Of a stretch of DNA of 64,000 nucleotides, positions 6,606 to 57,189 are shown in pieces. Made by a program: the position numbers and the translations under genes. The first letter of the stretch is position 1. The number at the start of each line of letters is the position of its first letter. The notes beneath the pieces were generated by a model. The model was not told the DNA's origin. It saw only the letters and a program-made list of their open reading frames with translations, and searched no databases. Source of the DNA: a virus (Duplodnaviria > Caudoviricetes); IMG/VR virus record IMGVR_UViG_3300034061_006011; one strand, given 5' to 3'.

Positions 6606-8372
6606 ATGGATAATTGGAAGAAAAAATACAAGTCTTTAAAAGACTACTATTTAAATCAATATGACTCAGAATTCTATTCAATAGATAACTATCAATTGGA
6701 AATTGATCCAAATGAAACTATTGATGATGTTTCTGCTTATAATCAACAAAGACAAGAAGAAGAAACATATAAATGCATGCAATCTTTTTCTTATTTTTGC
6801 CATAAATATATCAGAATTTTGCATCCAACAAAAGGCTTAGTGCCATTTATAATTTTCAAATACCAGCAAAGAGTAATTGATGATTATGAAAACCATAGAT
6901 TTAATATTATCTCAAAATTCCGTCAGGGTGGTTTAACAACAGTAACATTGCTTCACGGACTTTATAAAGCATTATTCACACTCGATTTTTCAATGATGCT
7001 TATATCAAAGTCTGACCGTGAAGCTGTAGAAGCTGGATACATCGTCGATAGAGCTATTGAACATTTACCAGAATGGCTTAAACCTAAAAAAGATGGTAAG
7101 TGGAATGACCACCTTAAACAAATTACTGAAACAGGTGGTAGCCTTAGATTTTATTCGCCAGAAGCCGCCCGTGGAAAGTCTGTGGCATTCATTTGTATAG
7201 ATGAAGCAGCATTCTTACCTAATATGGAAACGGACTGGAGAGCTTTGTATCCAGTTCTTTCAACAGGTGGTAAATGTTCAATTATTTCTACAGTCAACGG
7301 TACAGGTAACTATTATTACGAATTATATACAGGAGCAAAAGAAGGTAGAAACAAATTTAATATTATTGATATTGACTATCACGAACATCCTTTCTATAAT
7401 TCGAAAGTAAATCCAGAATGGGCAGATGAACAAAGAGCACAGCTTGGCGAAAAAGGTTTCTTACAGGAAATTCTTAGAGTATTCCTTGGATCTGGTGACA
7501 CATATATTCCCGGTAAAGAATTAGCAAGACTTGATGAAGAAGTAAAAAATGGTTTTCCTAAAAGGAAACTTTTTGCAAAATATCAAAATAAAACTAAAAA
7601 CGATGATCCAGATATGAAAGAAGAAAATAAAGGAGCATTGTGGATTTGGAAAGAACCAGCACCAGCAAAAGAATATATATTCGGTATAGATTGCTCAGAA
7701 GGAGTAATGGCTGATAACTCTTGTATTCAAATTGTAGATACAGAATCAAGAGAACAAGTTGCTGAATTTTATTCCAACAACATAACACCTTATGAATTTG
7801 CACAAGTAGTTTATGAATTGGCAATTTTATATAACAATGCTTTGCTAGTGATAGAAGATATGGCTGCTGGCATGTCAGTAATTAACACTTTGCAAAATGA
7901 GCTTTATTATGATAATTTTTATTATCACAATCCAGATTCAAGAAATGCTAGAATTGGAATTAAAACAACTGTCTCTACAAGACCGTTGATATTGACAAGC
8001 TTTCAAACAGCAATTTTGCAAAAATCATTAAAAGTAAATTCTGTAAGACTATTGCATGAAATGAAAACATTTGAATACAATAATACAACTAAAAAACCAG
8101 AAGCTCATAAAGGTAAACATGATGATGCAATTATGGCTTTGGCTTTATGTTTGTATGTCCTGTCAACTCAAAACAAATCTCAACCAGCAGGATATGATGG
8201 TAAAAAAGCTAAAGCATCAATACTGCTAGAAGATATAAAAAAAGAAATCAGCGAAAATATGAAAGCGAATTTTAAGTCAAAATTTAAACCAAAAGAAGAT
8301 AATAAAGATTATTCAGAAATGATTGCACTATATCGACCAAAAAATACACTCTTAAATGAGTTTGGGTGGTGA
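6606..8372 (+). CDS. terL: terminase large subunit (T4 gp17-like)
   Basis: KFRQGGLTT Walker A variant, ICIDEAAF Walker B, IISTVNG coupling motif, RNase H-like nuclease GIDCSEG...HDDAIMA. Confidence 0.93.
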   Translation: MDNWKKKYKSLKDYYLNQYDSEFYSIDNYQLEIDPNETIDDVSAYNQQRQEEETYKCMQSFSYFCHKYIRILHPTKGLVPFIIFKYQQRVIDDYENHRFNIISKFRQGGLTTVTLLHGLYKALFTLDFSMMLISKSDREAVEAGYIVDRAIEHLPEWLKPKKDGKWNDHLKQITETGGSLRFYSPEAARGKSVAFICIDEAAFLPNMETDWRALYPVLSTGGKCSIISTVNGTGNYYYELYTGAKEGRNKFNIIDIDYHEHPFYNSKVNPEWADEQRAQLGEKGFLQEILRVFLGSGDTYIPGKELARLDEEVKNGFPKRKLFAKYQNKTKNDDPDMKEENKGALWIWKEPAPAKEYIFGIDCSEGVMADNSCIQIVDTESREQVAEFYSNNITPYEFAQVVYELAILYNNALLVIEDMAAGMSVINTLQNELYYDNFYYHNPDSRNARIGIKTTVSTRPLILTSFQTAILQKSLKVNSVRLLHEMKTFEYNNTTKKPEAHKGKHDDAIMALALCLYVLSTQNKSQPAGYDGKKAKASILLEDIKKEISENMKANFKSKFKPKEDNKDYSEMIALYRPKNTLLNEFGW

Positions 8373-21381: not shown

Positions 21382-21762
21382 ATGATCACTTTCAAACAAT
21401 TCCTAGAATCCTACAGAATGGAAGACCAAACCTTCTCCGATAACAACGGCACCTACTCCGTACCACAAATAGTCAACTACGCAACAGAAAACAAAACAAT
21501 AAAAGAAATGCCATTAGAACCCCTACTACATAACCTAGAACCATCCCCACACGAAGAAGGTGATGAACTACCCGGTCATCCAGAATTTATCAAAAGAACT
21601 GAACTAACTGACCTCAAATACCCAATCATTATCGTCAAATACCCAGACGGTCTCTTTATCGCTGACGGTGTCCATAGACTAGCAAAAGCTCACTCCCTAA
21701 ACCAACAAACTATCAAAGCTTATGTCCTAGACCAAAATGAATTAGAACAATTCAAAATGTAA
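21382..21762 (+). CDS. tagged ParB/Sulfiredoxin-like domain protein (MITFKQFLES)
   Basis: YPIIIV...IADGVHRLAKA. Confidence 0.7.
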   Translation: MITFKQFLESYRMEDQTFSDNNGTYSVPQIVNYATENKTIKEMPLEPLLHNLEPSPHEEGDELPGHPEFIKRTELTDLKYPIIIVKYPDGLFIADGVHRLAKAHSLNQQTIKAYVLDQNELEQFKM

Positions 21763-27713: not shown

Positions 27714-27851
27714 AATACATATCTATCCCACAAAAACAAAAACCCTACCACCCCCAAAAAAATACCCCGGCGCATTTTTTTAAACCCCATACCTTCATAT
27801 ATTTTTAACCTATTACCACATATACACAATACCATGTCACAACATTTCTGT

Positions 27852-27975
27852 AAAATGAAATAAAATTATTCCAGATTTTTAGAAAATGAAATAAAATTAT
27901 TCCAGATTTTTAGAAAATGAAATAAAATTATTCCAAAATTTTAGAAAATGAAATAAAATTATTCCAAAATTTTTT
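27852..27975. repeat. 4 x 31-bp AT-rich tandem repeat
   Basis: AAAATGAAATAAAATTATTCCA(G/A)A(T/A)TTTTAG. Confidence 0.95.
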
Positions 27976-28156
27976 AAATAAATCAAGATGAACAACAAAA
28001 GGGAGCCATGATGGCGGGGGGATACCCCCCTACCCCACTCTCTTTTGGGGAATGTCAAGTGCAATTATGTTATGGCAACTTTGTAACATAATTAAAAAAC
28101 CCCTATAAAACAAGTGCGGCGCAATTGTGTTATCACGCCGCCTGCCTATTCTGTTA

Positions 28157-28339
28157 TCACCTTACCCACTTCATAGTTATGTTAGCCTGAACCTTTGGCT
28201 TATCCCCCTCCCATTCAGTATTGATATTCACTTCTGTTATCTGCCTTGTCGGCTTGCGGTCATGGTGTTGAACGTGTTGGCAACCTACCGACAACACCAC
28301 AACCAATAACATAATTAACCTTACCATGGTCATCATCCT
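28157..28339 (-). CDS. small putative lipoprotein
   Basis: hydrophobic signal ending in LSVG-C lipobox; start approximate. Confidence 0.55.
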   Translation of the reverse strand, partial: RMMTMVRLIMLLVVVLSVGCQHVQHHDRKPTRQITEVNINTEWEGDKPKVQANITMKWVR

Positions 28340-28524
28340 TGAATGCCGATTGATCCCCACACTACTATTATCGGCATTCAACCAACCAGACTTGAACCAA
28401 CCTAAAGATTCTTCCTAACCACATTTTAGTATCCTAAGTTTGTCCGCATTGTCTCAATTGAAATAACAATAAAAAAACCCCCTTCTCCGGGTGGAGAAGG
28501 GGGCTGTTGATTATTGTTAGCCTA

Positions 28525-29190
28525 TCATTCAGATAACAGAATCATTTCTAATTCCCCCCCACGGATTCCCATTGAAGGGAATCCCTTGGCTGAATAAATT
28601 CTTTCGATTGCGTCTTCGGACGTTAGCCCGAAGACGTTTTGCAATTGTTGGAACAGGCACTTCAAATGGCGATCCAGTGCCAACTTTGTTATCACAATAA
28701 CAAAGTTTTCAATGGTGCCGTTAACACGGCACGCCGTCCCAGTGGGACGGTTGATTTCAAAATTAACCGTCCCAAGACGGTTCACATCCCACTTATAACG
28801 CCCACTGGCGGATTGATCCGCCGGTGTTGGTAGTGGGTGTTGACAATTACAATAAGTATCCTGATCCGCATTGAAATAGTCCGCCCAATCAATGGGCGTT
28901 CCAATGCACGCCCAAAGATGCCCAAACGAATGGGCGATTTTACGGGACACCCGCAATTGTGCGGGTGTCATTTTTGAAGTCTCAAAACTGAATTCATCGG
29001 GATACCGAAGTGGCTCGCCACTCCAGTGGCGTGAACAGTCTCGCTTGCCCCGTAGGGCAAGCGATGCGATTTCAGCGGCATTGGGTGCCGCAGCGTTCTT
29101 CCTGATCCAGTGGTTGAGATACGCAACACGACCGGTTGCGGTTGCGGTTGCGGTTGCGGTTGCGGTGGCGGTGGCGGTTGAAATGGTCAT
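28525..29190 (-). CDS. hypothetical protein with N-terminal (TA)n microsatellite
   Basis: start moved to 29190; 8 x CGGT(T/G)G at 29133-29180. Confidence 0.7.
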   Translation of the reverse strand: MTISTATATATATATATATGRVAYLNHWIRKNAAAPNAAEIASLALRGKRDCSRHWSGEPLRYPDEFSFETSKMTPAQLRVSRKIAHSFGHLWACIGTPIDWADYFNADQDTYCNCQHPLPTPADQSASGRYKWDVNRLGTVNFEINRPTGTACRVNGTIENFVIVITKLALDRHLKCLFQQLQNVFGLTSEDAIERIYSAKGFPSMGIRGGELEMILLSE

Positions 29191-29552
29191 GTTCGATACT
29201 CTCATGCCCGTTTCAGGTACGGGTGGACCTTGGCTAAGGTGAACCACAACATGCGGTTCACCTACGACTATCTTAACATCATCCCCAACTAGGTCAAGAG
29301 AAAATCCACCCAAGAGAAAAGATTCCTCCCATCCACATTTTAGTATCCTAGTGTTGTCTCAATTGTCCAGCAATAGGATTCCTCCCATCCACATTTTAGT
29401 ATCCTAGTGTTGTCCACATTGTCCAGCAATAGGATTCCTCCCATCCACATTTTAGTATCCTAGTGTTGTCTCAATTGTATCAATTCAGATAACAATAAAA
29501 AAACCCCCTTGACTTGTCTGTCAAGGGGGTGGTTGATTAAGTTAGCCGATTG

Positions 29553-29759
29553 TTATTTAATTTTGTCGAGCCACATATCGATGATTCCAGAAACCAGTTT
29601 CCTTTCCTTTGGTTTCATTCTTAGAAACATTTTTAGATGTTCAACGATTTTCTCGAATCGTTCCAGCTCATTTTTGATTCTTTTAAGTTGTTTGTCTACC
29701 CTCTTTGGGCGAGAAACCTTTCCATCAACAATGCGGCTTGATTCGTTTTCAGTTCTCAT
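29553..29759 (-). CDS. small coiled-coil hypothetical protein
   Basis: own promoter, leader and terminator. Confidence 0.65.
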   Translation of the reverse strand: MRTENESSRIVDGKVSRPKRVDKQLKRIKNELERFEKIVEHLKMFLRMKPKERKLVSGIIDMWLDKIK

Positions 29760-30006
29760 GGTATTCGATCCATACGGTTTTCAGGGGAACCGGGAACCTA
29801 GAAGCGGCACACTATGCGCCGCCTCATGCATTCATTCTACCATCATCCCCAACTAGGTCAAGGGAAAAGAAAAGATTCCTCCCATACACATTTTAGTATC
29901 CTAGTGTTGTCTCAATTGTCCAGCACAATATCAAAATTGAAATAACAATAAAAAAACCCCCTTGACTTGTCTGTCAAGGGGGCTGTAGTTTTGTTATCTG
30001 ATATTG

Positions 30007-30273
30007 TTATTTTGTGAACGCCTCCAGTATTGCCTTCATGGCAACGTCTCTTATTTCACTCTTAGGCAAACGCATGATTGCCCGCATACAAGAGATTTTA
30101 TTCTTGTAGCTTTTGAGTAGGTCATCCAATGGCGTTTTCTCCCTTGCGTGGGGTATTTCCGGCAGATTAAACCGCTGTGGCTTATCGCACTTAATGTATT
30201 CCTTGTATTCCTTTTCCCGCTTGTCGGCGGTTGGAGAAACGGTTGCGGCAACGGCGTTACGCTCAATTTTCAT
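30007..30273 (-). CDS. hypothetical protein
   Basis: own promoter and leader shared with 29553-29759. Confidence 0.65.
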   Translation of the reverse strand: MKIERNAVAATVSPTADKREKEYKEYIKCDKPQRFNLPEIPHAREKTPLDDLLKSYKNKISCMRAIMRLPKSEIRDVAMKAILEAFTK

Positions 30274-30585
30274 AGCAGTCGATCCAACCGGTTTTCAGGG
30301 GAACCGGGAACCTAGAAACGGCACACTATGCGCCGCCTCATGAAGTCATTCTAACAACGTCCCCAACTAGGTCAAGAGAAAATCCACCCAAGAGAAAAGA
30401 TTCCTCCCATCCACATTTTAGTATCCTAAAGTTGTCCGTATTGTATCTTAAGAGGAATTCCTCCCATCCACATTTTAGTATCCTAAAGTTGTCCGTATTG
30501 TATCGTAATAGGAATTCCTTCCATCCACATTTTAGTATCCTAAAGTTGTCTTAATTATCTAGAACGATATCAAAAAAGGGTGTAA

Positions 30586-31785
30586 TAGTGTTAGCCGATA
30601 ACGAAATAGCGGAGATAACGAAATGGCGGGAATAGTGTTAGCCGATAACGAAATAGCGAAGATAACGAAATGAAGGTAATAGTGTTAGCAGATAACGAAA
30701 TTAAAGATATGAAAACAAAAAAACCCCGCAAGCCTTTCGACTTGCGGGGCAGATTGACCGGCAGGGGTTGTCATGTTGTCGTGTGTGATGTAATCTTGAT
30801 CACATTATTGGAAACACCTTGATAAACCGGAGACATCTTACCCGCATGAGTGAACTCAATTCCGTAATTGGCACCGACACGGAATTCGGTTTCCGTTCCG
30901 GGTTCATAAGCCACGAAACCGATATTCGTTGCCTCATGAACAAAGTTCACGATGCGAGTTGGTTTCCCATATCCCCAGCGTACTGGTGAAACCCCTACGC
31001 ATATCACTTCAATATTGTAATTACCCGGCTCAATCGCTTGAGTGATTGGCGTTGGCAATTTAATAGCTGCAATTGGTGCAAGTGGTGCAATTGGTGCAAT
31101 TGGTGCCACTGGTGGCACTTGCGCCACTGGTGCCACTGGTGGCACTTGCGCCACTTGCGCCAACGCTGCCCTAAGCGTTGCCAATTGTTCGGGGTTGAAA
31201 CCCCGAACAAGATCAAGCATCGACTGGCTTGCATCGATTGCCACTGGTGCGGAAACGGACTTGGCGTTCTTGCGGGGTGCCATGGTCATAAACTCCATGC
31301 CAGTTTCAGGATACTGGCGGAACCGGTTAAGGTGAACCACAACATGCGGTTCACCTACAAGCATCATAGGGAAACCGTTTCACTAGGTCAAGCGAATTCC
31401 CAAGAAAGTTTCCTTACAAATTCTTAAGATCCGCGGACCCCCCCCCCTCCCATCCACATTTTAGTATCCTAAAGTTGTCTCAATTGTCCAGTCTGGTAAC
31501 AAAAAAGGAATTCCTCCCATCCACATTTTAGTATCCTAAAGTTGTCTCAATTGTTTCTAAAAAAAACAAAATTAAATTATAATATTTAATTTCATAATTA
31601 AAATAGTTATCAGATAACGAAAGTGGCAATAATGTTAGCCGATAACGGAATAGGGGAGATAACGGAAACGGTAATAGTGTTAGCGGATAACGTAAGTGGG
31701 AATAGTGTTAGCGGATAACGGAAGTGGGAATAGTGTTAGCGAATAACGGAATAGGGGAGATAACGAAATTACCGATATGAAAACA
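30586..31785. repeat. two blocks of GTTAGCNGATAACG / GATAACG repeats (30586-30712, 31605-31785)
   Basis: about 5 and 7 GATAACG copies; both blocks adjoin the same terminator. Confidence 0.9.
30771..31289 (-). CDS. hypothetical protein with AP-rich linker and beta-rich C-terminal domain
   Basis: start after GGAG at 31289; AQVPPVAPV repeats. Confidence 0.7.
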   Translation of the reverse strand: MTMAPRKNAKSVSAPVAIDASQSMLDLVRGFNPEQLATLRAALAQVAQVPPVAPVAQVPPVAPIAPIAPLAPIAAIKLPTPITQAIEPGNYNIEVICVGVSPVRWGYGKPTRIVNFVHEATNIGFVAYEPGTETEFRVGANYGIEFTHAGKMSPVYQGVSNNVIKITSHTTT

Positions 31786-31841
31786 AAAAAACCCCGCAAG
31801 CCTTTCGACTTGCGGGGCAGGATTGCCGATATGTTATTCGA

Positions 31842-32099
31842 TTATGCACCAAGCCAGATGATCTTGGTGTTCTTATTGGCAAGATGACGGGTGAGCAGGA
31901 AGACGAGATCAGTGTCTTCCTTTTTTGAAATCATCTTGATTACGTCACCGTTTCGATCAACGGTCAATTGAACCGAAGTTCCTTCAATCTGGTTCATTCC
32001 AAGGCTTGTCACCTTGGAAGTGGACAACGCTTCAACAATTGCGTTATCTACTTTTGCGTCGATGAGAACAGCAATCGAAACCTGAATATTGTTATTCAC
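31842..32099 (-). CDS. hypothetical protein
   Basis: own promoter, leader and terminator. Confidence 0.6.
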   Translation of the reverse strand: MNNNIQVSIAVLIDAKVDNAIVEALSTSKVTSLGMNQIEGTSVQLTVDRNGDVIKMISKKEDTDLVFLLTRHLANKNTKIIWLGA

Positions 32100-32359
32100 G
32101 GTAAGAATCTCAATCCGGTCTTAAGGTGAACCGGTGACCTAGGCTTGTTGAACCATTCACCAAGCCATGAACGTATTAGACCACAAACGCCAAACCACGT
32201 CAAGAGAAAATTCCAGCAGGAGAAAATTCCTTCCATCCACATTTTAGTATCCTAAAGTTGTCTCAATTGTCCAGTCTGATAACAAAATTGAAATAACAAT
32301 AAAAAAACCCCCTTGTCCGGGGGGACAAGGGGGCTGTCAATTTTGTTCTGTTATGAGAT

Positions 32360-32593
32360 TCACCACCAAGCGGTAGCGTTCTCCTTGCTCACTTCTGAAA
32401 TCTTGATCAATATCGAAACGAGACTATCACGAAGCTCGTCATTCGATTGATCATTTCTGAATTCTTCAACGAGTACCTTGTACTTGGCTACAAGCTTTTC
32501 AATCTTTGAAATAACATTGAGAAGCTGTTTGCTTGGAACCTTGGAAGCTTGGGCTTCCTCTTCTGCCGTCATGATTCTGTTATCGTTGTTCAT
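32360..32593 (-). CDS. small coiled-coil hypothetical protein
   Basis: GGAG RBS, start at 32593. Confidence 0.6.
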   Translation of the reverse strand: MNNDNRIMTAEEEAQASKVPSKQLLNVISKIEKLVAKYKVLVEEFRNDQSNDELRDSLVSILIKISEVSKENATAWW

Positions 32594-32983
32594 TTTGTTT
32601 TCTCCAGTGCTTTGCGACACCATGCCGCATTGAGCAAACACAATTTACCACAACCAACCGCAGCTTGTCAACAACACTATTTGCCCCTATTACGGTAGGA
32701 GATATACAGCCGTGTATATGTAGGGATTAGTATGCAAGATATGCAACGCCGATGGTGAACCGTCGATAAGCCGAACGGATTAGATAAGCATAAGACGGAA
32801 CCGTCCCATCCACATTTTAGTATCCTAAAGTTGTCTCAATTGTCCACGCAGATATCAAAACGACGATATGCCCCATCCACATTTTAGTATCGTAAAGCTA
32901 GTGGAATAGTAGCTTATTAAATAACAATAAAAAAACCCCCTTCTCCGGGTGGAGAAGGGGGCGGTTGATTATGTTAGCCTAAC

Positions 32984-34084
32984 TTATTTGGCTTCTTGAT
33001 TTACCTTTTCAAGAGACTTCAGAATCATTGCAAGCTCATGGCGGCTTGCACAATTCTTAGCACCTTCAATATGTCCTGCAAAATCTGAAATGAACTTCCG
33101 TGCTTCAGATTTTGCATCACATTGTTTTTCAAGGAATAACAAAAGTCCATCGATTTCCTCCCTAGACAATCCCTTTTGCCGCTTTTCGGCGGTTGGGGAA
33201 ACAGTTGGTTGGTTCAATGGTGGCAGTGGTTGACGTGATGGAGGAAGGACAGAAGAAGGAGTCTTCGGGTCCACTTTAGGTGGCATTGCTGCACCTGAAA
33301 GATTGATAGGTGGAAGATCTTTCTTCTTCTCTTCGATCTTAGCTACGGCTTTGGCTTCTGCTTTTGTGGCAGCAGAAGGAGCAATACCAGAATTGATTCC
33401 TTTATCGGCAAGCTTCTTGTCGATAACGTCAATAATTTTATCGTTGAGCTTCTTCTTCTCTTCCTTGCTCTTGTCCATTTCTGAAATCACTTCGGTTGCT
33501 GCGGCAATGTCCGCCATGACTTCAGGAGGAACAGCCTTTCCATTCTTCCTTTCTAACAAACGAAAAGCGGAAGACTTCGTATATTCTCCTTCATGGATAG
33601 ACAATTGAATTGCTTCGGGCAACTTGAGCAATTTCAAAAAGTTTGATACTTCAGAATCTGAAATATTAAAATGCGCTGCTATGGTCTTTTGTGTCCAATT
33701 GAATTCCTCCTTAGCCCGTAGCATATCCTTAGCCCGATCAATGAATGAAGGATTGTGATATGAATTCTCAACAATCTGAATTACGAAATGATCTTCTCTG
33801 GTCCTTGCCTTGTAAACAAGAGCTGGAATCTCCTTTAATCCAGCTTCTTTAGCTGCCATGGTACGGCGAATGCCGCCCATGACTTCAAAAGTGCCGTCTT
33901 CCTTTTCATTCAGAATGATATTCTGAAGAACTCCATGAATCTTAATGTTATTTGCCAATTCTGTGATTGACGCTGGGTCCATTCCAGCCTTCCGATTCCT
34001 TGACAAATCATAATTGATTTTGTCAAGAGCAACGATCATCCGAACAGAAGCAGGTGAAGAAGAAACCTTAGATGCCTTAGCCAT
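32984..34084 (-). CDS. parB: ParB/Spo0J-family partition protein
   Basis: SIxELAxNI..HGVLQNI, GGIRR box II variant, EN, HTH WTQKTIAAHFNISDSEVSNFLKLLKLP; start after GGAG. Confidence 0.85.
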   Translation of the reverse strand: MAKASKVSSSPASVRMIVALDKINYDLSRNRKAGMDPASITELANNIKIHGVLQNIILNEKEDGTFEVMGGIRRTMAAKEAGLKEIPALVYKARTREDHFVIQIVENSYHNPSFIDRAKDMLRAKEEFNWTQKTIAAHFNISDSEVSNFLKLLKLPEAIQLSIHEGEYTKSSAFRLLERKNGKAVPPEVMADIAAATEVISEMDKSKEEKKKLNDKIIDVIDKKLADKGINSGIAPSAATKAEAKAVAKIEEKKKDLPPINLSGAAMPPKVDPKTPSSVLPPSRQPLPPLNQPTVSPTAEKRQKGLSREEIDGLLLFLEKQCDAKSEARKFISDFAGHIEGAKNCASRHELAMILKSLEKVNQEAK

Positions 34085-34702
34085 TTCAAAATCTCCTATT
34101 TTGTTTTCTTTCAGGATCAAACTGTTCTCACCTGAAAGAAACCGTTCCGCCCTTTAGCGGTGAACCCATTAAACCACAACCGGCTTAACGTGTCAAGTGT
34201 TTTTTTTCCTCGGCAAAACAAGCGTTTTTAACACTTGCAACTTCAGAATTGAACACGGTTGGCGTTGTGTTTTCACAAATCCACCCAAACCACACCACCA
34301 TCAAGGACACCCTTAGTATACGAAAAACACCGAGGAAAATCAAGTACCTCTTATATATTGATATCATAGGCGCGCGCCCCCTTCCATCCACATTTTAGTA
34401 TCCTAAACCCATCTTTAATTGATACTAAAATGTGAATGGGGATGGGCGGTTTTATACAAGTATAAAATCATATCAATCGTTTGATTCGATTCCTTCCATC
34501 CACATTTTAGTATCCTAAAGTTGTCTCAATTAGTTTTGCTCAAGTATCAACTAAGTCTCAATTGCGTTTTTTCAACTATCTGTAAAGGGGAAATTACATT
34601 TCATAATCATTCCTCCATCCACATTTTAGTCTCAATTAAAGATGTGCTTAGGATACTAAAATGTGGATGGAACCGGACAGTCTTATACTAATACAAAATC
34701 AA

Positions 34703-34766
34703 TTCATTCGTTTCATTTGATTCATTCATTTGATTCATTCGTTTGATTCATTCGTTTGATTCGTTT
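34703..34766. repeat. 13-mer AT-rich tandem repeat TTTGATTCATTC(G/A)
   Basis: three full units at 34716, 34729, 34742 plus partial flanks. Confidence 0.9.
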
Positions 34767-34882
34767 CTTTCCCATCCACATTTTAGTCTACAAGAAGTGT
34801 AGCTTATTAAATAACAATAAAAAAACCCACCTGAGATGTCTCAGGTGGGTGATGAATTTTAGATTGTTAGAGTCTTATTTGA

Positions 34883-35221
34883 TTACGATCCAACAAGGCT
34901 CTCATTCAATTCAAGATGCATTTCTAATGTGTCACCGGGACGCATACCACCCCGATAATCCAACTCTTTGAACTTCTGACAAATGATACCGAACAACTCA
35001 TTCTTGATTCTGTCATGCTCTTCAGGATCTTCTGAGAAAGGAATGGGAACATTCCAACTCTTAATACTACAAGGATCACCCTTGAGAAATAATTTAGATG
35101 CATTAAGGATTTCCCATCCACATGATGCAAGTGGCAATCCAAAGAAAATTTGCCTGTTATTTGTGTGCATTGTATAGACGTTACCGGATGGTGACCTATG
35201 GAAGTAGAATACTGTATTCAT
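34883..35221 (-). CDS. early hypothetical protein
   Basis: promoter-hairpin-GGAG cassette; start moved to 35221. Confidence 0.65.
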   Translation of the reverse strand: MNTVFYFHRSPSGNVYTMHTNNRQIFFGLPLASCGWEILNASKLFLKGDPCSIKSWNVPIPFSEDPEEHDRIKNELFGIICQKFKELDYRGGMRPGDTLEMHLELNESLVGS

Positions 35222-35289
35222 CTCATTCTCCTTATCGAGTACCCGACTTCCCACTGTGTTCCATCAGGTACTCAAATTGTATCAAACTA

Positions 35290-35619
35290 TCAACCACCTG
35301 TCAAGTACAAACCAATTTCACTAACCAAACTCTCCTTAAGCGTTTTATATTCATCATCAATTTTGTCACAAAAGGCATTTTTCAATCTTGCATGTATCTG
35401 ATTTATGTTTTCTAAAATGTTTTTCTTAGCGGAGCTGTCTTCTCTTTGAATAAAGTATTGAAACTTTGTCCAAAGATACTTTAATTCATCAACCATCCTC
35501 CTGTAATCCTTTAGACTAAGATAAACTGAAGCCACTTCAGGCATCTTTAGTCTTTTACCATTCGGCAACACCAACCAACTACCATCTTGGTCATCTACAA
35601 TTTCAATTTCACAATCCAT
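35290..35619 (-). CDS. early hypothetical protein
   Basis: perfect TTGACA-N17-TATAAT upstream. Confidence 0.65.
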   Translation of the reverse strand: MDCEIEIVDDQDGSWLVLPNGKRLKMPEVASVYLSLKDYRRMVDELKYLWTKFQYFIQREDSSAKKNILENINQIHARLKNAFCDKIDDEYKTLKESLVSEIGLYLTGG

Positions 35620-39568: not shown

Positions 39569-40549
39569 TTAGTTAGCGACTTGGACGGCTAGGTCTAACG
39601 CCCGTTTGTTCATATTAGCTGATTGACCGAACCAGAGGGAGGTGTATCGGTTATCAGGGTTTCGTCCGGCGTTGTGAGAGAGGTGTTCGGTGACTGCGTT
39701 GTAAGCAGACCACCAAGTACCTTCAGCGAGGTCAGATCCTACGCCGACATAGGCGAGGTCGGTGATTTCTTTGACACGGTTGAAGGAGCGGGTTGACATT
39801 TCGCCATCGGTATTGACATCAACGTCAAGGACTTTGATGACATATTCGACGAGATCCTTGTGGTTAACGATTCTGCTTTTGGCGAGGAATCGGTATTGTT
39901 CCATGGTGGCTTGGAACTCAGAGTTTGCGAGAACCATAATTTCTCGAACTTTGTCGAGAACTTCGGTTTGTCGTTTGTGGTGCCGAATACGGAGGAGTTT
40001 AGATTCCGAATCGGATTTAGCTTGAGCTAATGTATTAGCACAAACTACACGGACTGGGGTGAAACCTGCACGGGTGGATTGAGTCCCGTCGAATGAAGTG
40101 GAAAGAAGGATATAGCGTTTAATCGCATCACCTTTAACGACTTCGGATTCTTCTTCATTAACTTTGCACATAGCAAAGATAACCCTACCTCCTTTGAGGA
40201 CACCGGCGGTTTCAAAAGTAGCTAGACCTGAGTCAACAACAGGTTGAAACCATTGAAGAGCTTCACTTGGTTGAATTGGTTCCCATTGTGGACCAACTGT
40301 GCCGAGGTAAGCTTGATCGACATCACGGAGAACGCCGAATGAATCTTCGGTTGGTGTAAATTCTCCGTTTTCGTCTTTGCGGTAGAGAGGGGATTTGTAA
40401 ACTCCCCAATCCATGTTTGCGGCTTTGAGGAAGGACAGATAATTCTTAGTATCATCTCCTTCTACTTTCTGACCGAGTGAGTGCCAACCGGGTTGACCGG
40501 CGAAGGCGAAAGAAGCGACATTATTCCTGTTTTCGATATCGTGTGCCAC
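39569..40549 (-). CDS. DUF932-family phage/plasmid protein
   Basis: MAHDIE...GQPGWHSLG, FETAGVLKGGR, LLSTSFDGT, TPVRVVCANTL, GTWWSAYNAVTE; GTG start at 40549. Confidence 0.85.
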   Translation of the reverse strand: MAHDIENRNNVASFAFAGQPGWHSLGQKVEGDDTKNYLSFLKAANMDWGVYKSPLYRKDENGEFTPTEDSFGVLRDVDQAYLGTVGPQWEPIQPSEALQWFQPVVDSGLATFETAGVLKGGRVIFAMCKVNEEESEVVKGDAIKRYILLSTSFDGTQSTRAGFTPVRVVCANTLAQAKSDSESKLLRIRHHKRQTEVLDKVREIMVLANSEFQATMEQYRFLAKSRIVNHKDLVEYVIKVLDVDVNTDGEMSTRSFNRVKEITDLAYVGVGSDLAEGTWWSAYNAVTEHLSHNAGRNPDNRYTSLWFGQSANMNKRALDLAVQVAN

Positions 40550-40671
40550 TGTCTGAATCTCCTTATAACTGTCGTTTCTGGGCGAAGTTGCCGTTGACGA
40601 CAGGTGTATTGTAGCGTGTTTCGGTCGTGGTGTCAAGTGTTTTTTTTTATTTTTTTGGGGTTTGTGGTTGT

Positions 40672-47332: not shown

Positions 47333-47851
47333 TCACACACTCCTTTTGATTTTGGCACCAGTCAAGTTGGCACCAGTCAAGTCAATGTCACTGTTGACAC
47401 CAGTTAAGTCCAAGTTTGCATTAGTCAAATTTGCACCATTTAAGTTAGTAAACCTAAAGTAGGCACCAGTCAATTCGGCACCTCTTAGGTTGCAATTTGA
47501 CAAGTCGGCTTTACCTAAAACAGTGTCACTCAAGTCTGCATTAGTCAAATTTGCACCATTTAAATTAGCAAAACTCAAGTTTGCATTAGTCAAATTGGCA
47601 CTTCTTAGGTTGCAATTTGACAAGTTGGCACCAGTTAAGTTGGCACCAACCAAATCAGCATAACTCAAATTAGCGTTACTCAAATCAGCATCAAACAAAT
47701 TGGCACCAGTCAATTTGGTAAAACTCAAGTTAGCATTACGCAAATCAGCAAACTTCAAATTTTCATATGTCAGGTCAGACCTGTCTAAACTTTCATAATG
47801 TGTCTGGTTGACGTAGATGACATCACCATTAATGTTCTTAATCTCGATCAT
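47333..47851 (-). CDS. pentapeptide-repeat protein
   Basis: about 25 A(D/N)Lxx repeats. Confidence 0.93.
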   Translation of the reverse strand: MIEIKNINGDVIYVNQTHYESLDRSDLTYENLKFADLRNANLSFTKLTGANLFDADLSNANLSYADLVGANLTGANLSNCNLRSANLTNANLSFANLNGANLTNADLSDTVLGKADLSNCNLRGAELTGAYFRFTNLNGANLTNANLDLTGVNSDIDLTGANLTGAKIKRSV

Positions 47852-55002: not shown

Positions 55003-55557
55003 TTATACCGAAAGATCCCTAAAGACTGCTATTAGTTTTAACAAGGATTCACTTTCTAATTGAATCCTCATATCATTACTGTTGGGTCCATTATACTCAA
55101 GTTCCTTGTCATAGTCAAGGAACATTTTTTTGGATTCTGGCAAATAGATTCTTTCTTGCAGAGATAATTTACTTAATGCTTCCCGAAATGTTTCAATTTC
55201 CCGATCATTTCTCTTTTTATCTACTATAAACTGTTCAGGAGATTGGTCATCTTCAACTACAATAGTTGTTTCAAAGTCAAGAACATTTCTATGATATCGT
55301 TTCTTATGCATCCATAAAGATCGGGCACCTTTCATTTGCCAAGCAGCATGACCGGAGAAAGATCCTTTAGTTGGATCATAAGTGGATGCAGCAACGACCA
55401 AGCTCATCATAAGCTCTTGCCGATATCCTTCTTCATCACGAAAATAAACACCTTTTGGAGTTCTTTTAAGGAACCATTCTACCAATGCAATATTATCTTC
55501 TACCAACTTCCTTTGAGTATTAGTCAAAGGAGAAACTTCTTTTTTTTGTTTAGCCAT
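55003..55557 (-). CDS. sigma70-family region-2 protein
   Basis: LVEDNIALV...ELMMSLVVAASTYDPTKGSFSGHA. Confidence 0.75.
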   Translation of the reverse strand: MAKQKKEVSPLTNTQRKLVEDNIALVEWFLKRTPKGVYFRDEEGYRQELMMSLVVAASTYDPTKGSFSGHAAWQMKGARSLWMHKKRYHRNVLDFETTIVVEDDQSPEQFIVDKKRNDREIETFREALSKLSLQERIYLPESKKMFLDYDKELEYNGPNSNDMRIQLESESLLKLIAVFRDLSV

Positions 55558-55727: not shown

Positions 55728-56384
55728 TTATTCTTCAAATTGGTCCCTTAGCCTTTCTACGCATTTTTTTGTTATCTGTTGAATGCGTTGTCGTGTAACT
55801 CCAAGTTCATCAGCAATACTTTGAAAACTTTTTTCATTAAAATAATGGTCTATGACTATTTGTCTGTGATGAATAGGAAGAACATTTAGGTTAATATAAA
55901 ACACAACTTTCTCTTCTTGTGGTTGCCTTAAAGTTGAATGTTTTGATTTGCTAATTACTTTATCGTTAATTGTAATTAGTTGATAATTATCTTTCCTTCT
56001 TCTATTTTTTACAAAATAGATTTCATAAATCCTTCTAAAGAAAGATGTATAGAAGTATGTCATGAACAAGACTTCACCGGGGATGAAGTATTTCTGGCAG
56101 CTACAATAGACATATAAAGCAATATTTTTAGCTTCCTCTAAATCTAATTTAATTTTATATTTTTCTTTGAATTTGCTGGCTAATTTTCTGGAGAAGTATG
56201 TTGTCATTTTGATAATATCTTCTTTAGGAAATTCAATATTTTTAATATCATTGTCTATATTTCTGCGATTTGCTTCATTTTGAGCAATACGCAGAGAATA
56301 CTTTTTATTTTCTCTTCCTATCTTTATGTCTACACAATCATTTGTTGTATAGACATATCCATCCTTGGTTTTAGTGTACCACAT
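55728..56384 (-). CDS. sigma70-family-like protein with region-4 HTH
   Basis: LP...RQIVIDHYFNEKSFQSIADELGVTRQRIQQI. Confidence 0.75.
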   Translation of the reverse strand: MWYTKTKDGYVYTTNDCVDIKIGRENKKYSLRIAQNEANRRNIDNDIKNIEFPKEDIIKMTTYFSRKLASKFKEKYKIKLDLEEAKNIALYVYCSCQKYFIPGEVLFMTYFYTSFFRRIYEIYFVKNRRRKDNYQLITINDKVISKSKHSTLRQPQEEKVVFYINLNVLPIHHRQIVIDHYFNEKSFQSIADELGVTRQRIQQITKKCVERLRDQFEE

Positions 56385-56605
56385 TATTGATCCAATGCTG
56401 CAAAAAAGGAAGTCTTGTGTGACCAGTTCTGATTTTTACTGAACAAAGTGCTACGACGATAGATATTTTTCCAACATGTGGAAATGTATGTCCAGTTTAT
56501 TGCTATGTTAAAAACAGTTGACTGGTTTAATGAACCGAAATCATAAGAACAACCTGATGTAAGCCAAGCTGTATCTTTTGGAATATTTTGATACTTGTTA
56601 ATCAT
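56384..56605 (-). CDS. small S/W/N-rich protein
   Basis: coupled overlaps at both ends; composition like the 59-62 kb array. Confidence 0.5.
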   Translation of the reverse strand: MINKYQNIPKDTAWLTSGCSYDFGSLNQSTVFNIAINWTYISTCWKNIYRRSTLFSKNQNWSHKTSFFAALDQ

Positions 56606-57189
56606 GTTTCTTGCTCCGGTTGATATTCTTGTTCTTCTAATCTAAAAGTCCATGCTACTGCTTGCTGGCATGTTTTAGCAGTTGGTGGAACACAAAGATA
56701 ATAATCTTTGTATGTACCATCTGGTTCTTGGGTAGAATTGACTACTTTGACATAAGATACTGGTTCATCAAATATACCTTTTATTTGAAAAAGGATTTGA
56801 TTTTTTTGTTTATCTTTGTGGATGATAGTTGTGTTGTTACTTTCTAACACTCTATCCATTCCAACAATTTTAATGCCGACATATCTAACTTCTGTATTAG
56901 GATGAGCTAATACTTCTGTTATTGTCAAGCTATCTGGTTTGGTGTAGAAATGTGGTGGAATTCTTACACCTTCGTAATAATAGCTGATGCTTCCCCATTT
57001 ATCGGCATCTAGCCCATGTTTTTTACCATTCCTGTACCAAGTGATACGGGTTGGTGTAATATAAGCGGGACCATCGTCTTTGTGAAGGTTGCCTTCTTCG
57101 TTGGTAAATCTTGTGATAGGTCCAAATGGATATTCTGTTAAGAAGAAATCCAATCGTGCTTTCCACGCATCAAATCCGTTATTCTTCAT
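56602..57189 (-). CDS. DUF6745-like phage protein
   Basis: LHKDDGPA repeat; VKVVNSTQEPDGTYKDYYLCVPP...AVAWTF. Confidence 0.75.
   Translation of the reverse strand: MKNNGFDAWKARLDFFLTEYPFGPITRFTNEEGNLHKDDGPAYITPTRITWYRNGKKHGLDADKWGSISYYYEGVRIPPHFYTKPDSLTITEVLAHPNTEVRYVGIKIVGMDRVLESNNTTIIHKDKQKNQILFQIKGIFDEPVSYVKVVNSTQEPDGTYKDYYLCVPPTAKTCQQAVAWTFRLEEQEYQPEQET

Follow-up and report, generated by a model that had tools for sequence, protein, structure and literature searches.

What might a ParB protein do in a phage when no ParA accompanies it? The question is raised by IMG/VR virus record IMGVR_UViG_3300034061_006011 (Caudoviricetes), of which we analyzed a stretch of 64,000 nucleotides (nt), hereafter the window. 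Its source is an uncultured giant lake phage of the T4 type, with a T4-type large terminase encoded at 6606-8372, and its parB gene lies within an array of repeats that the initial annotation, made from the sequence alone, took for a parS centromere used to position or segregate phage genomes. The protein is best classified as an orphan (ParA-less) clamp with the ParB-CTPase fold and a helix-turn-helix (HTH) domain, in the class that includes Noc, VirB, BisD, and, as a regulator, KorB (PMC12704722, PMC11790492, PMC10770331, PMC12409273), and it is more likely to control or organize the gene island in which it is encoded than to segregate phage genomes. Orphan ParBs are common on mobile elements and mostly uncharacterized, according to a 2025 survey (PMC12704722). 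The ParA-independent clamps KorB, VirB, BisD, and Noc have been understood only recently, and the known examples come from plasmids, integrative and conjugative elements (ICEs), and chromosomes.

A ParB-family protein that lacks the ParA-binding motif

A full-length ParB had been placed at 32803-34790. This span of 1,988 nt runs from repeat copy to repeat copy and is not an open reading frame (ORF): its sole long frame under translation table 11 is 32984-34120 on the minus strand, in which the parB-family ORF (32984-34084) encodes 366 amino acids (aa) from a likely start, the ATG at 34084, with an AGGAG site in front. An alternative genetic code was considered, as the span seemed to imply an ORF of about 660 aa, and was dropped in view of the clean 366-aa frame. 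The identification as ParB held. The protein matches Pfam ParB_N (PF02195, 2.4e-13) and HTH_ParB (PF17762, 1.4e-10), the latter bearing out the reported HTH, scores 97.3 bits against TIGR00180 (cut-off 58.45), and matches PHROG 1033, "ParB-like partition protein" (2.9e-27). Its closest solved relatives by sequence are ParB of M. xanthus, Noc of Geobacillus and Bacillus, Spo0J, and Caulobacter ParB; matches to solved ParB and Noc proteins reach about 1e-15 with the single sequence and 1e-22 with a family profile, and KorB is more distant among solved structures (2.7e-06). The Noc model TIGR04285 was failed by a wide gap (85 bits, cut-off 315). Membership in the ParB/RepB/Spo0J superfamily, with a predicted ParB-CTPase fold and an intact HTH, is well supported by these profiles. 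The AlphaFold2 (AF2) model, built from 13 sequences, was poor overall (mean pLDDT confidence score of 54) and confident over the HTH region; a Foldseek search with it returned only ParB-family chains, and because the model is weak, we used it for such family-level fold matches only.

The protein comprises a nucleoside triphosphate (NTP)-binding domain (approximately aa 16-120), the HTH domain (approximately 125-208), further helices to about aa 255, a Pro-rich linker (approximately 256-305), and a lineage-specific helical C-terminus (approximately 308-361). A search of 5.8 billion clustered proteins recovered a tight ParB family of 13 clusters with 60-100% identity, below which there is a gap, the next, generic ParBs being about 35% identical. 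The last 127 aa, that is, the linker followed by four predicted helices, had no homologue outside this 13-member family among 1.84 billion representatives. The C-terminal dimerization domain PF23552, carried by the generic ParBs from the same protein search, had no Pfam match in the phage protein, which may dimerize through a different fold. "Full-length" therefore applies only with the qualification that both this domain and the ParA-binding motif are missing. The Pro-rich linker was also considered as a partner-binding motif and rejected; codons 241-366 show little synonymous divergence, and the conservation of the linker thus reflects their recent common origin.

The motif (L/F/I)G(K/R)G(L/F/I), the survey's criterion for ParA-binding ParBs, is found in none of the 13 family members and in all four canonical ParBs of the same search; Noc, VirB, and BisD are listed as ParA-independent clamps without it (PMC12704722). 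The earlier statement that the window holds no ParA agrees with our searches. No deviant Walker A motif (KGGxGK[ST]) occurs in the six frames of the window, whose sole Walker A motif is that of an AAA protein encoded at 8-1213, and Pfam identified no ParA, integrase, repressor, or Rep among 50 window ORFs. ORF 21382-21762 had no ParB-family Pfam match at E values up to 1.

The "CTPase-like box" of the initial annotation is present in altered form. Box II GxxR is invariant in the family, as GGIRR or GGVRR in 13 of 13 members, and aligns to GERR of M. xanthus ParB, with the Glu replaced by Ile or Val throughout. Box III keeps E-N, with ENLQR appearing as ENSY-H in the allele of the window (allele A) and as ENLIRQ in allele C. 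Also retained are the box III Asn and the Arg equivalent to R54 of M. xanthus ParB, and the hydrolysis-type sequence pattern (Glu of GERRxR, ENLxR box) is not found in the 13-member family. In KorB and ParB, the Glu of GERR is required for hydrolysis of cytidine triphosphate (CTP) and is dispensable for its binding (PMC11790492); Ile or Val at this position would favor a long-lived clamp, for which slow hydrolysis is predicted. NTP specificity is not predictable from sequence (PMC12704722).

The residues of Caulobacter ParB that contact parS (PMC7383237) were mapped onto the family by alignment to solved relatives. Q162 and S172 are kept, N178 is kept in the window allele (N148) and is K in other alleles, and R204 is kept or, in allele C, replaced by Q. 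G170 is N in the family, K171 is I, and the specificity residue R173 is Asp or Glu in every allele. Because these contact residues are changed, the protein should read neither parS nor NBS, the Noc site. The window contains no match to parS TGTTNCACGTGNAACA with up to two mismatches and none to NBS with up to three; canonical parS, NBS, and OB (the KorB site) were rejected as ParB targets, none having been found in the window.

Repeats upstream of every island gene

The repeat core CCATCCACATTTTAGTATC is present in 19 copies with at most three mismatches (0.01 expected by chance), all clustered within 6.4 kb (28415-34790), 17 of them on one strand, co-oriented with transcription, and two inverted. 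A logo of 60 copies from the window and four related loci showed that the core, which reads AGGATACTAAAATGTGGATGG on the gene strand, is asymmetric and does not vary; conservation is weaker in its flanks (ACAAT-N4-GACAAC upstream and GAGGAAT downstream). The invariant stretch amounts to 21 nt. The right side of the repeat is invariant, and the left arm of an inner dyad, TTTAGGATACTAAA, erodes: only 9 of the 19 copies retain six of its seven symmetric pairs. Dyads of this quality occur in 11% of random 45-mers, and, as it is statistically not compelling, the inner dyad was rejected as a parS.

Each of the eight island genes has one to six copies, invariably placed after the upstream terminator and ahead of the promoter of the gene itself. 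The promoter-proximal copy ends 187, 134, 29, 58, 31, 20, and 31 nt before the -35 element, and spacings between copies include 56, 57, and 67 nt. ParB is indeed flanked by repeats, as had been noted: six copies (34384-34790, two of them inverted) precede the gene, and two (32806-32891) follow it. Every island gene is flanked just as parB is. As repeats stand in front of all eight island genes and, in a related strain, of unrelated genes, they are not peculiar to parB. The specialities of parB are the largest cluster, of six copies, and the only two inverted copies of the island, whose position is conserved in all related loci that reach that far. Because parB has both the densest cluster and the only inverted copies, this arrangement suggests autoregulation.

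The core is absent from the rest of the window, despite approximately 25 other strong early promoters there, and a word-based look-up across other windows of this genome gave look-alikes at this locus alone. Seven copies also fit a weak host promoter, TGGACA-16-GATACT. On the plus strand, the 3' end of the repeat, CCATNCACA, matches the DnaA box TTATCCACA at seven of nine positions; in this end, the 60 copies vary mostly at the N position (C, A, or T), and the CC is strictly conserved. The island contains no consensus DnaA box (TTWTNCACA). Given this and the strict conservation of the CC, the repeat was rejected as a DnaA box and is retained only as a minor part of the origin explanation considered below.

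A second repeat class, GTTA(G/T)CNGATAAC, comprises eight sites in two arrays (30590-30696 and 31606-31747), along with half-sites, and on the gene strand appears as twelve direct TTYCGTTATC units. Both arrays follow the same type-2 terminator, and each site has five or six of six symmetric pairs. GTTAGCSGATAAC of this class agrees with KorB OB TTTAGCSGCTAAA at 10 of 13 positions, which is not significant, as the window holds 11 such matches. This class is conserved in five of the eight related loci.

A single phage lineage with exchangeable cassettes

A metagenome scan identified eight lake contigs (L001-L008) that encode ParB relatives with 60-93% identity; these are strains of one phage lineage, and the island backbone is collinear among them. 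The repeat core is almost unchanged in all eight ParB-bearing loci. Thus, the part of the parS interpretation by which ParB and the repeat travel together stood, although this co-occurrence is not independent evidence, all eight loci being of one lineage. In IMG/VR, neither a repeat array nor a ParB relative was found, and in the genome collection (GTDB), there was no repeat array and only single chance matches among the matches listed.

Comparison of the window with L004 showed intergenic scaffolds (terminators, repeats, promoters, and leaders) to be 96-100% identical and several coding segments to be only 40-75% identical. Within this mosaic (27950-35260), the diverged segments are parB codons 31-240, a gene at approximately 35100, the gene at 30771-31367, and stretches near 30200 and 29900. 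At the lower island edge are five tandem copies of a 31-bp AT-rich unit (27813-27998), and L004 lacks the adjoining window segment 25741-27719.

Among parB codons that specify identical residues, about 50% carry synonymous changes in codons 31-240, the mark of deeply diverged alleles, and about 10% in codons 241-366, the mark of recent shared ancestry. By this measure, the nucleotide- and DNA-binding half of ParB is represented by at least three deeply diverged alleles, recombined into a nearly isogenic background. In codons 31-90, 11 of 60 residues differ from L004, and 23 of the 49 identical-residue codons have synonymous changes; judging from the substitutions, the N-terminal domain is under purifying selection. 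The alleles vary at four predicted DNA-contact positions (N/K, K/T/D, S/D/V, and R/Q), and neither repeat class covaries with them in the related loci.

L001 carries three cassettes, absent from the window, in which ORFs unrelated to those of the window's island lie behind the same repeats; the repeats therefore belong to a reusable cassette scaffold. The other island proteins had no Pfam or PHROG matches, and an ESM Atlas search with the largest of them gave nothing. By Pfam and PHROGs, ParB is the only recognizable DNA-binding protein of the island.

Possible roles of ParB in the island

We tentatively favor, at somewhat short of an even chance, the reading in which ParB is an orphan clamp resembling KorB, VirB, and BisD that loads on the island repeats and controls transcription of the early cassettes. 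ParB would be made early from a strong host-type promoter, and its dimers would load on the island-specific repeats. Upon binding a nucleotide, probably CTP, the clamp would close around DNA and slide across the island of approximately 7 kb, where it would govern how strongly or when the cassette promoters, that of parB included, fire, as KorB, VirB, and BisD do on plasmids and ICEs. We infer the nucleotide binding, the loading on either repeat, the sliding, and the effect on transcription from sequence features. Family membership with an intact HTH, the lack of the ParA motif in all 13 members, and the lack of ParA in the window argue for such a clamp, as do the GxxR, the R54-matching Arg, and the box III Asn, all kept in an N-terminal domain under purifying selection. 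The repeats precede all eight island genes at distances varying between 20 and 187 nt, a variability that suits a sliding clamp more than a phase-dependent activator, and the layout of sites resembles that described for KorB and VirB (PMC11790492, PMC10770331). The repeat and ParB occur together in eight of eight loci, and the searches located neither of them elsewhere. A strong promoter with expression early in infection, the densest repeat cluster at parB itself, and the slow hydrolysis predicted for the protein are also consistent with this role.

Several observations weigh against a regulatory clamp. The repeat is asymmetric and its inner dyad is weak, and to our knowledge, every characterized ParB-type clamp loads on a palindrome. 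The DNA-contact positions of ParB vary by allele, and both repeat classes are constant. Seven repeat copies double as matches to the weak host promoter, the repeats accompany unrelated cargo genes, such that ParB could be one cargo among several, and the AF2 model (mean pLDDT of 54) is poor outside the HTH. A more specific proposal, which we regard as unlikely, is that a hydrolysis-poor ParB clamp, loaded on asymmetric 21-nt sites in front of each promoter of the swappable island, would act as a built-in timer or silencer of that island or as a shield for incoming DNA, and that the deeply diverged alleles would reflect an arms race against the host or co-infecting phages. If true, it would provide both the first case of a virulent phage with a ParB-type transcription clamp and the first such clamp whose loading site is not a palindrome. 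Should the clamp read the asymmetric repeat, the rules now known for clamp loading would have to be broadened; otherwise, the repeat would stand as an unexplained, strictly conserved element of the cassette-exchange scaffold. The locus is a compact candidate protein-site pair in a T4-type giant phage, with one 366-aa protein, natural alleles of its DNA-binding half, two candidate site classes, and seven promoters with recognizable host-type signals.

We give a modest chance, roughly one in four, to a different account: ParB could be only one hypervariable cargo gene among several in an arms-race island and have host DNA, nucleotides, or a defense system as its target, with the repeats forming part of a reusable scaffold that is read otherwise, by host RNA polymerase (as weak tandem promoters), by a phage middle-mode factor, or by cassette-swapping recombination machinery. 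The identities seen between strains (96-100% in scaffolds against 40-75% in coding segments, parB codons 31-240 included), the three L001 cassettes with unrelated ORFs behind the same repeats, the co-orientation of 17 of 19 copies with transcription, the seven matches to TGGACA-16-GATACT, and the lack of repeat covariation with ParB alleles all fit. Neighboring early genes also look conflict-like (DUF932 and a pentapeptide-repeat protein). However, 21 invariant nt, including 10 nt downstream of the -10-like hexamer, exceed the needs of a sigma70 promoter, and the core is confined to the island, although about 25 other early promoters are present in the 64-kb window. Furthermore, a group of six copies with conserved inverted pairs is found at parB alone, and a ParB whose HTH is intact would require a site of some kind on DNA. 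The initial proposal appears improbable. On this view, the repeats would form a parS-like centromere to which ParB binds in order to place or partition phage genomes, with the help of a host ParA or SMC or of the phage's own actin-like filament, which would support a carrier or plasmid-like state. Many sites around parB do resemble chromosomal parS clusters and the tandem sopC of F (PMC7205306), the protein passes TIGR00180, and P1 ParB is likewise without the canonical ParA motif (PMC12704722). The centromere reading loses ground mainly because the ParA motif is missing (0 of 13) and the sites are tied to promoters, lying between the terminator and promoter of every cassette, with 17 of 19 copies pointing in the direction of transcription. 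The sites are also asymmetric, they show no covariation with the strongly divergent DNA-binding alleles of ParB, and the window encodes no ParA, integrase, repressor, or Rep. A T4-type terminase and a strong early promoter speak against it as well. T4-type phages are lytic, and actin-type partition employs ParR-type adaptors, not ParB. Finally, the island might hold a replication origin, with one repeat class serving as initiator iterons and ParB aiding the origin or marking newly injected DNA, which we consider very improbable. The twelve direct TTYCGTTATC units in two arrays, one of which abuts an AT-rich stretch of about 50 nt, would suit an origin, as would the resemblance of the main repeat end CCATNCACA to a DnaA box (7/9, with variation at the N position) and the turn of cumulative GC skew near 36-38 kb. 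GC skew in such phages, however, follows transcription direction. Against an origin, a search for a Rep-like initiator among the island proteins (Pfam, PHROGs, and ESM Atlas) returned nothing, no consensus TTWTNCACA occurs in the island, the conserved CC, standing where a DnaA box has TT, speaks against DnaA, and spacings of 56, 57, and 67 nt are unlike those of iteron origins.

Comparison with known systems

In T4-type phages, promoter-early-stem-loop (PeSL) units are reusable promoter and leader modules that flank swappable small early genes; we know of no PeSL unit with a 21-nt upstream repeat or an associated ParB. Among ParB-family systems, KorB with its OB sites on IncP-1 RK2 is, as proposed for the phage protein, a CTP clamp with an HTH and many sites near promoters; it is encoded inside the region it controls and can act over variable distances by sliding (PMC11790492). 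Unlike the phage protein, KorB carries a peptide that interacts with a ParA (IncC), has KorA and TrbA as partners, and uses a perfect 13-bp palindrome as its site; no KorA-like partner was identified in the phage locus, and the sequence match is weak (2.7e-6 vs 1e-15 for ParB/Noc). VirB of the Shigella plasmid pINV and BisD of ICEclc are, as proposed for the phage protein, ParA-independent ParB-like CTP clamps that load upstream of promoters and alter transcription at a distance, BisD spreading in the direction of transcription (PMC10770331, PMC12409273). Their sites, however, are few, parS-like inverted repeats, and BisD has an activator domain and a partner, BisC, whereas the locus here lies in a phage, with 19 asymmetric sites and a protein whose C-terminus is lineage-specific.

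Noc of Bacillus, an orphan without the ParA motif, is among the best solved relatives by sequence and fold (PMC8429893, PMC7383237), but the phage protein scores well below the Noc cut-off (85 vs 315 bits), has no NBS-like site, carries Asp or Glu rather than Gln at position 173, and shows no evident N-terminal amphipathic helix. Type Ia partition systems (SopB/sopC of F, SopB of N15 with its four inverted-repeat sites, and ParB/parS of P1) are, like the locus described here, borne on phages or plasmids and have multiple repeated sites, sopC being an array of tandem 43-bp direct repeats (PMC7205306). They differ in having a cognate ParA/SopA next door and an inverted repeat within each repeat, in contrast to the ParA-less phage locus with its motif-less ParB, and the carrier here is a lytic-type, T4-like phage. 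The 5mYOX-associated phage ParBs (10.1101/2025.08.14.668559; PMC13229309) are also phage-encoded and ParA-less and share the ParB NTP-binding fold; they have no DNA-binding domain and adjoin a TET/JBP dioxygenase, whereas the ParB described here has an HTH and no such neighbor.

Features of the locus and its surroundings

The coordinates of the island features are collected in Table 1. parB lies in a block of 42-45% G+C in a genome of about 30-33% G+C. The sequence of its promoter does not differ in any of the related loci, and the leader between promoter and start contains two hairpins. The upper edge of the repeat island is marked by the early cassette preceding parB, in front of which there is no repeat.

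Table 1. Positions of genes, signals, and repeats in the ParB island of the window
Feature	Position	Strand	Description
parB gene	32984-34084	-	366 aa; N-terminal domain, HTH, helices, linker, and C-terminus (domain/profile searches)
parB promoter, sigma70-type	34168-34196	-	TTGACA, 17 nt, TTTAAT; TGG just upstream of -10
parB intrinsic terminator	32935-32962	-	Strong; 12-pair G+C stem, T run
parB upstream repeat zone	34384-34790		Six copies; the 34384-34402 copy ends 187 nt before -35
Cores upstream of parB	34772-34790, 34652-34670 (inverted), 34615-34633, 34496-34514, 34421-34439 (inverted), 34384-34402
Two repeat copies downstream of the parB terminator	32806-32891	-	Upstream copies of the next cassette (gene 32360-32593)
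Whole repeat field	28415-34790		19 copies, 6+2+1+2+3+1+3+1 ahead of eight minus-strand genes
Second repeat, array 1	30590-30696		Three GTTAGCNGATAAC sites and half-sites, behind type-2 terminator 30723-30750
Second repeat, array 2	31606-31747		Five GTTA(G/T)CNGATAAC sites and half-sites; AT-rich stretch of ~50 nt at 31555-31605 follows
Preceding early cassette	34825-35304	-	Promoter 35276-35304, 112-aa gene 34883-35221, terminator 34825-34850

Two candidates in the region upstream of parB were rejected. A structured RNA had no Rfam match and a fold z-score of -1.0, and the apparent ultra-conservation of 330 nt only equals the general 96-100% identity of all intergenic scaffolds and is not special. 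Between the last repeat and the parB promoter is a 60-aa minus-strand ORF (34185-34367) with a hydrophobic stretch; it is 100% identical in L004, where the DNA is equally identical, so that no coding inference is possible. There is a weak promoter-like site at 34343-34315. A short run of tandem GAATCAAACGAAT-like units (34700-34765), interposed between repeat copies in front of parB, is strain-variable, with 65% identity to L004.

Elsewhere in the early region, Pfam domains identify a DUF932 protein (39569-40636, 3e-44), a protein of pentapeptide repeats (47333-47851, 3e-40), and a DUF6745 protein (56602-57189, 2e-31). DUF932 and pentapeptide proteins are common in entry or conflict regions of mobile elements. 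Two adjacent sigma-like proteins are encoded on the minus strand at 55003-55557 and 55728-56384, one with a weak match to Sigma70_r2 (0.005) and the other with a clear match to Sigma70_r4 (4e-11); together, they may represent a split or two-part phage sigma factor.

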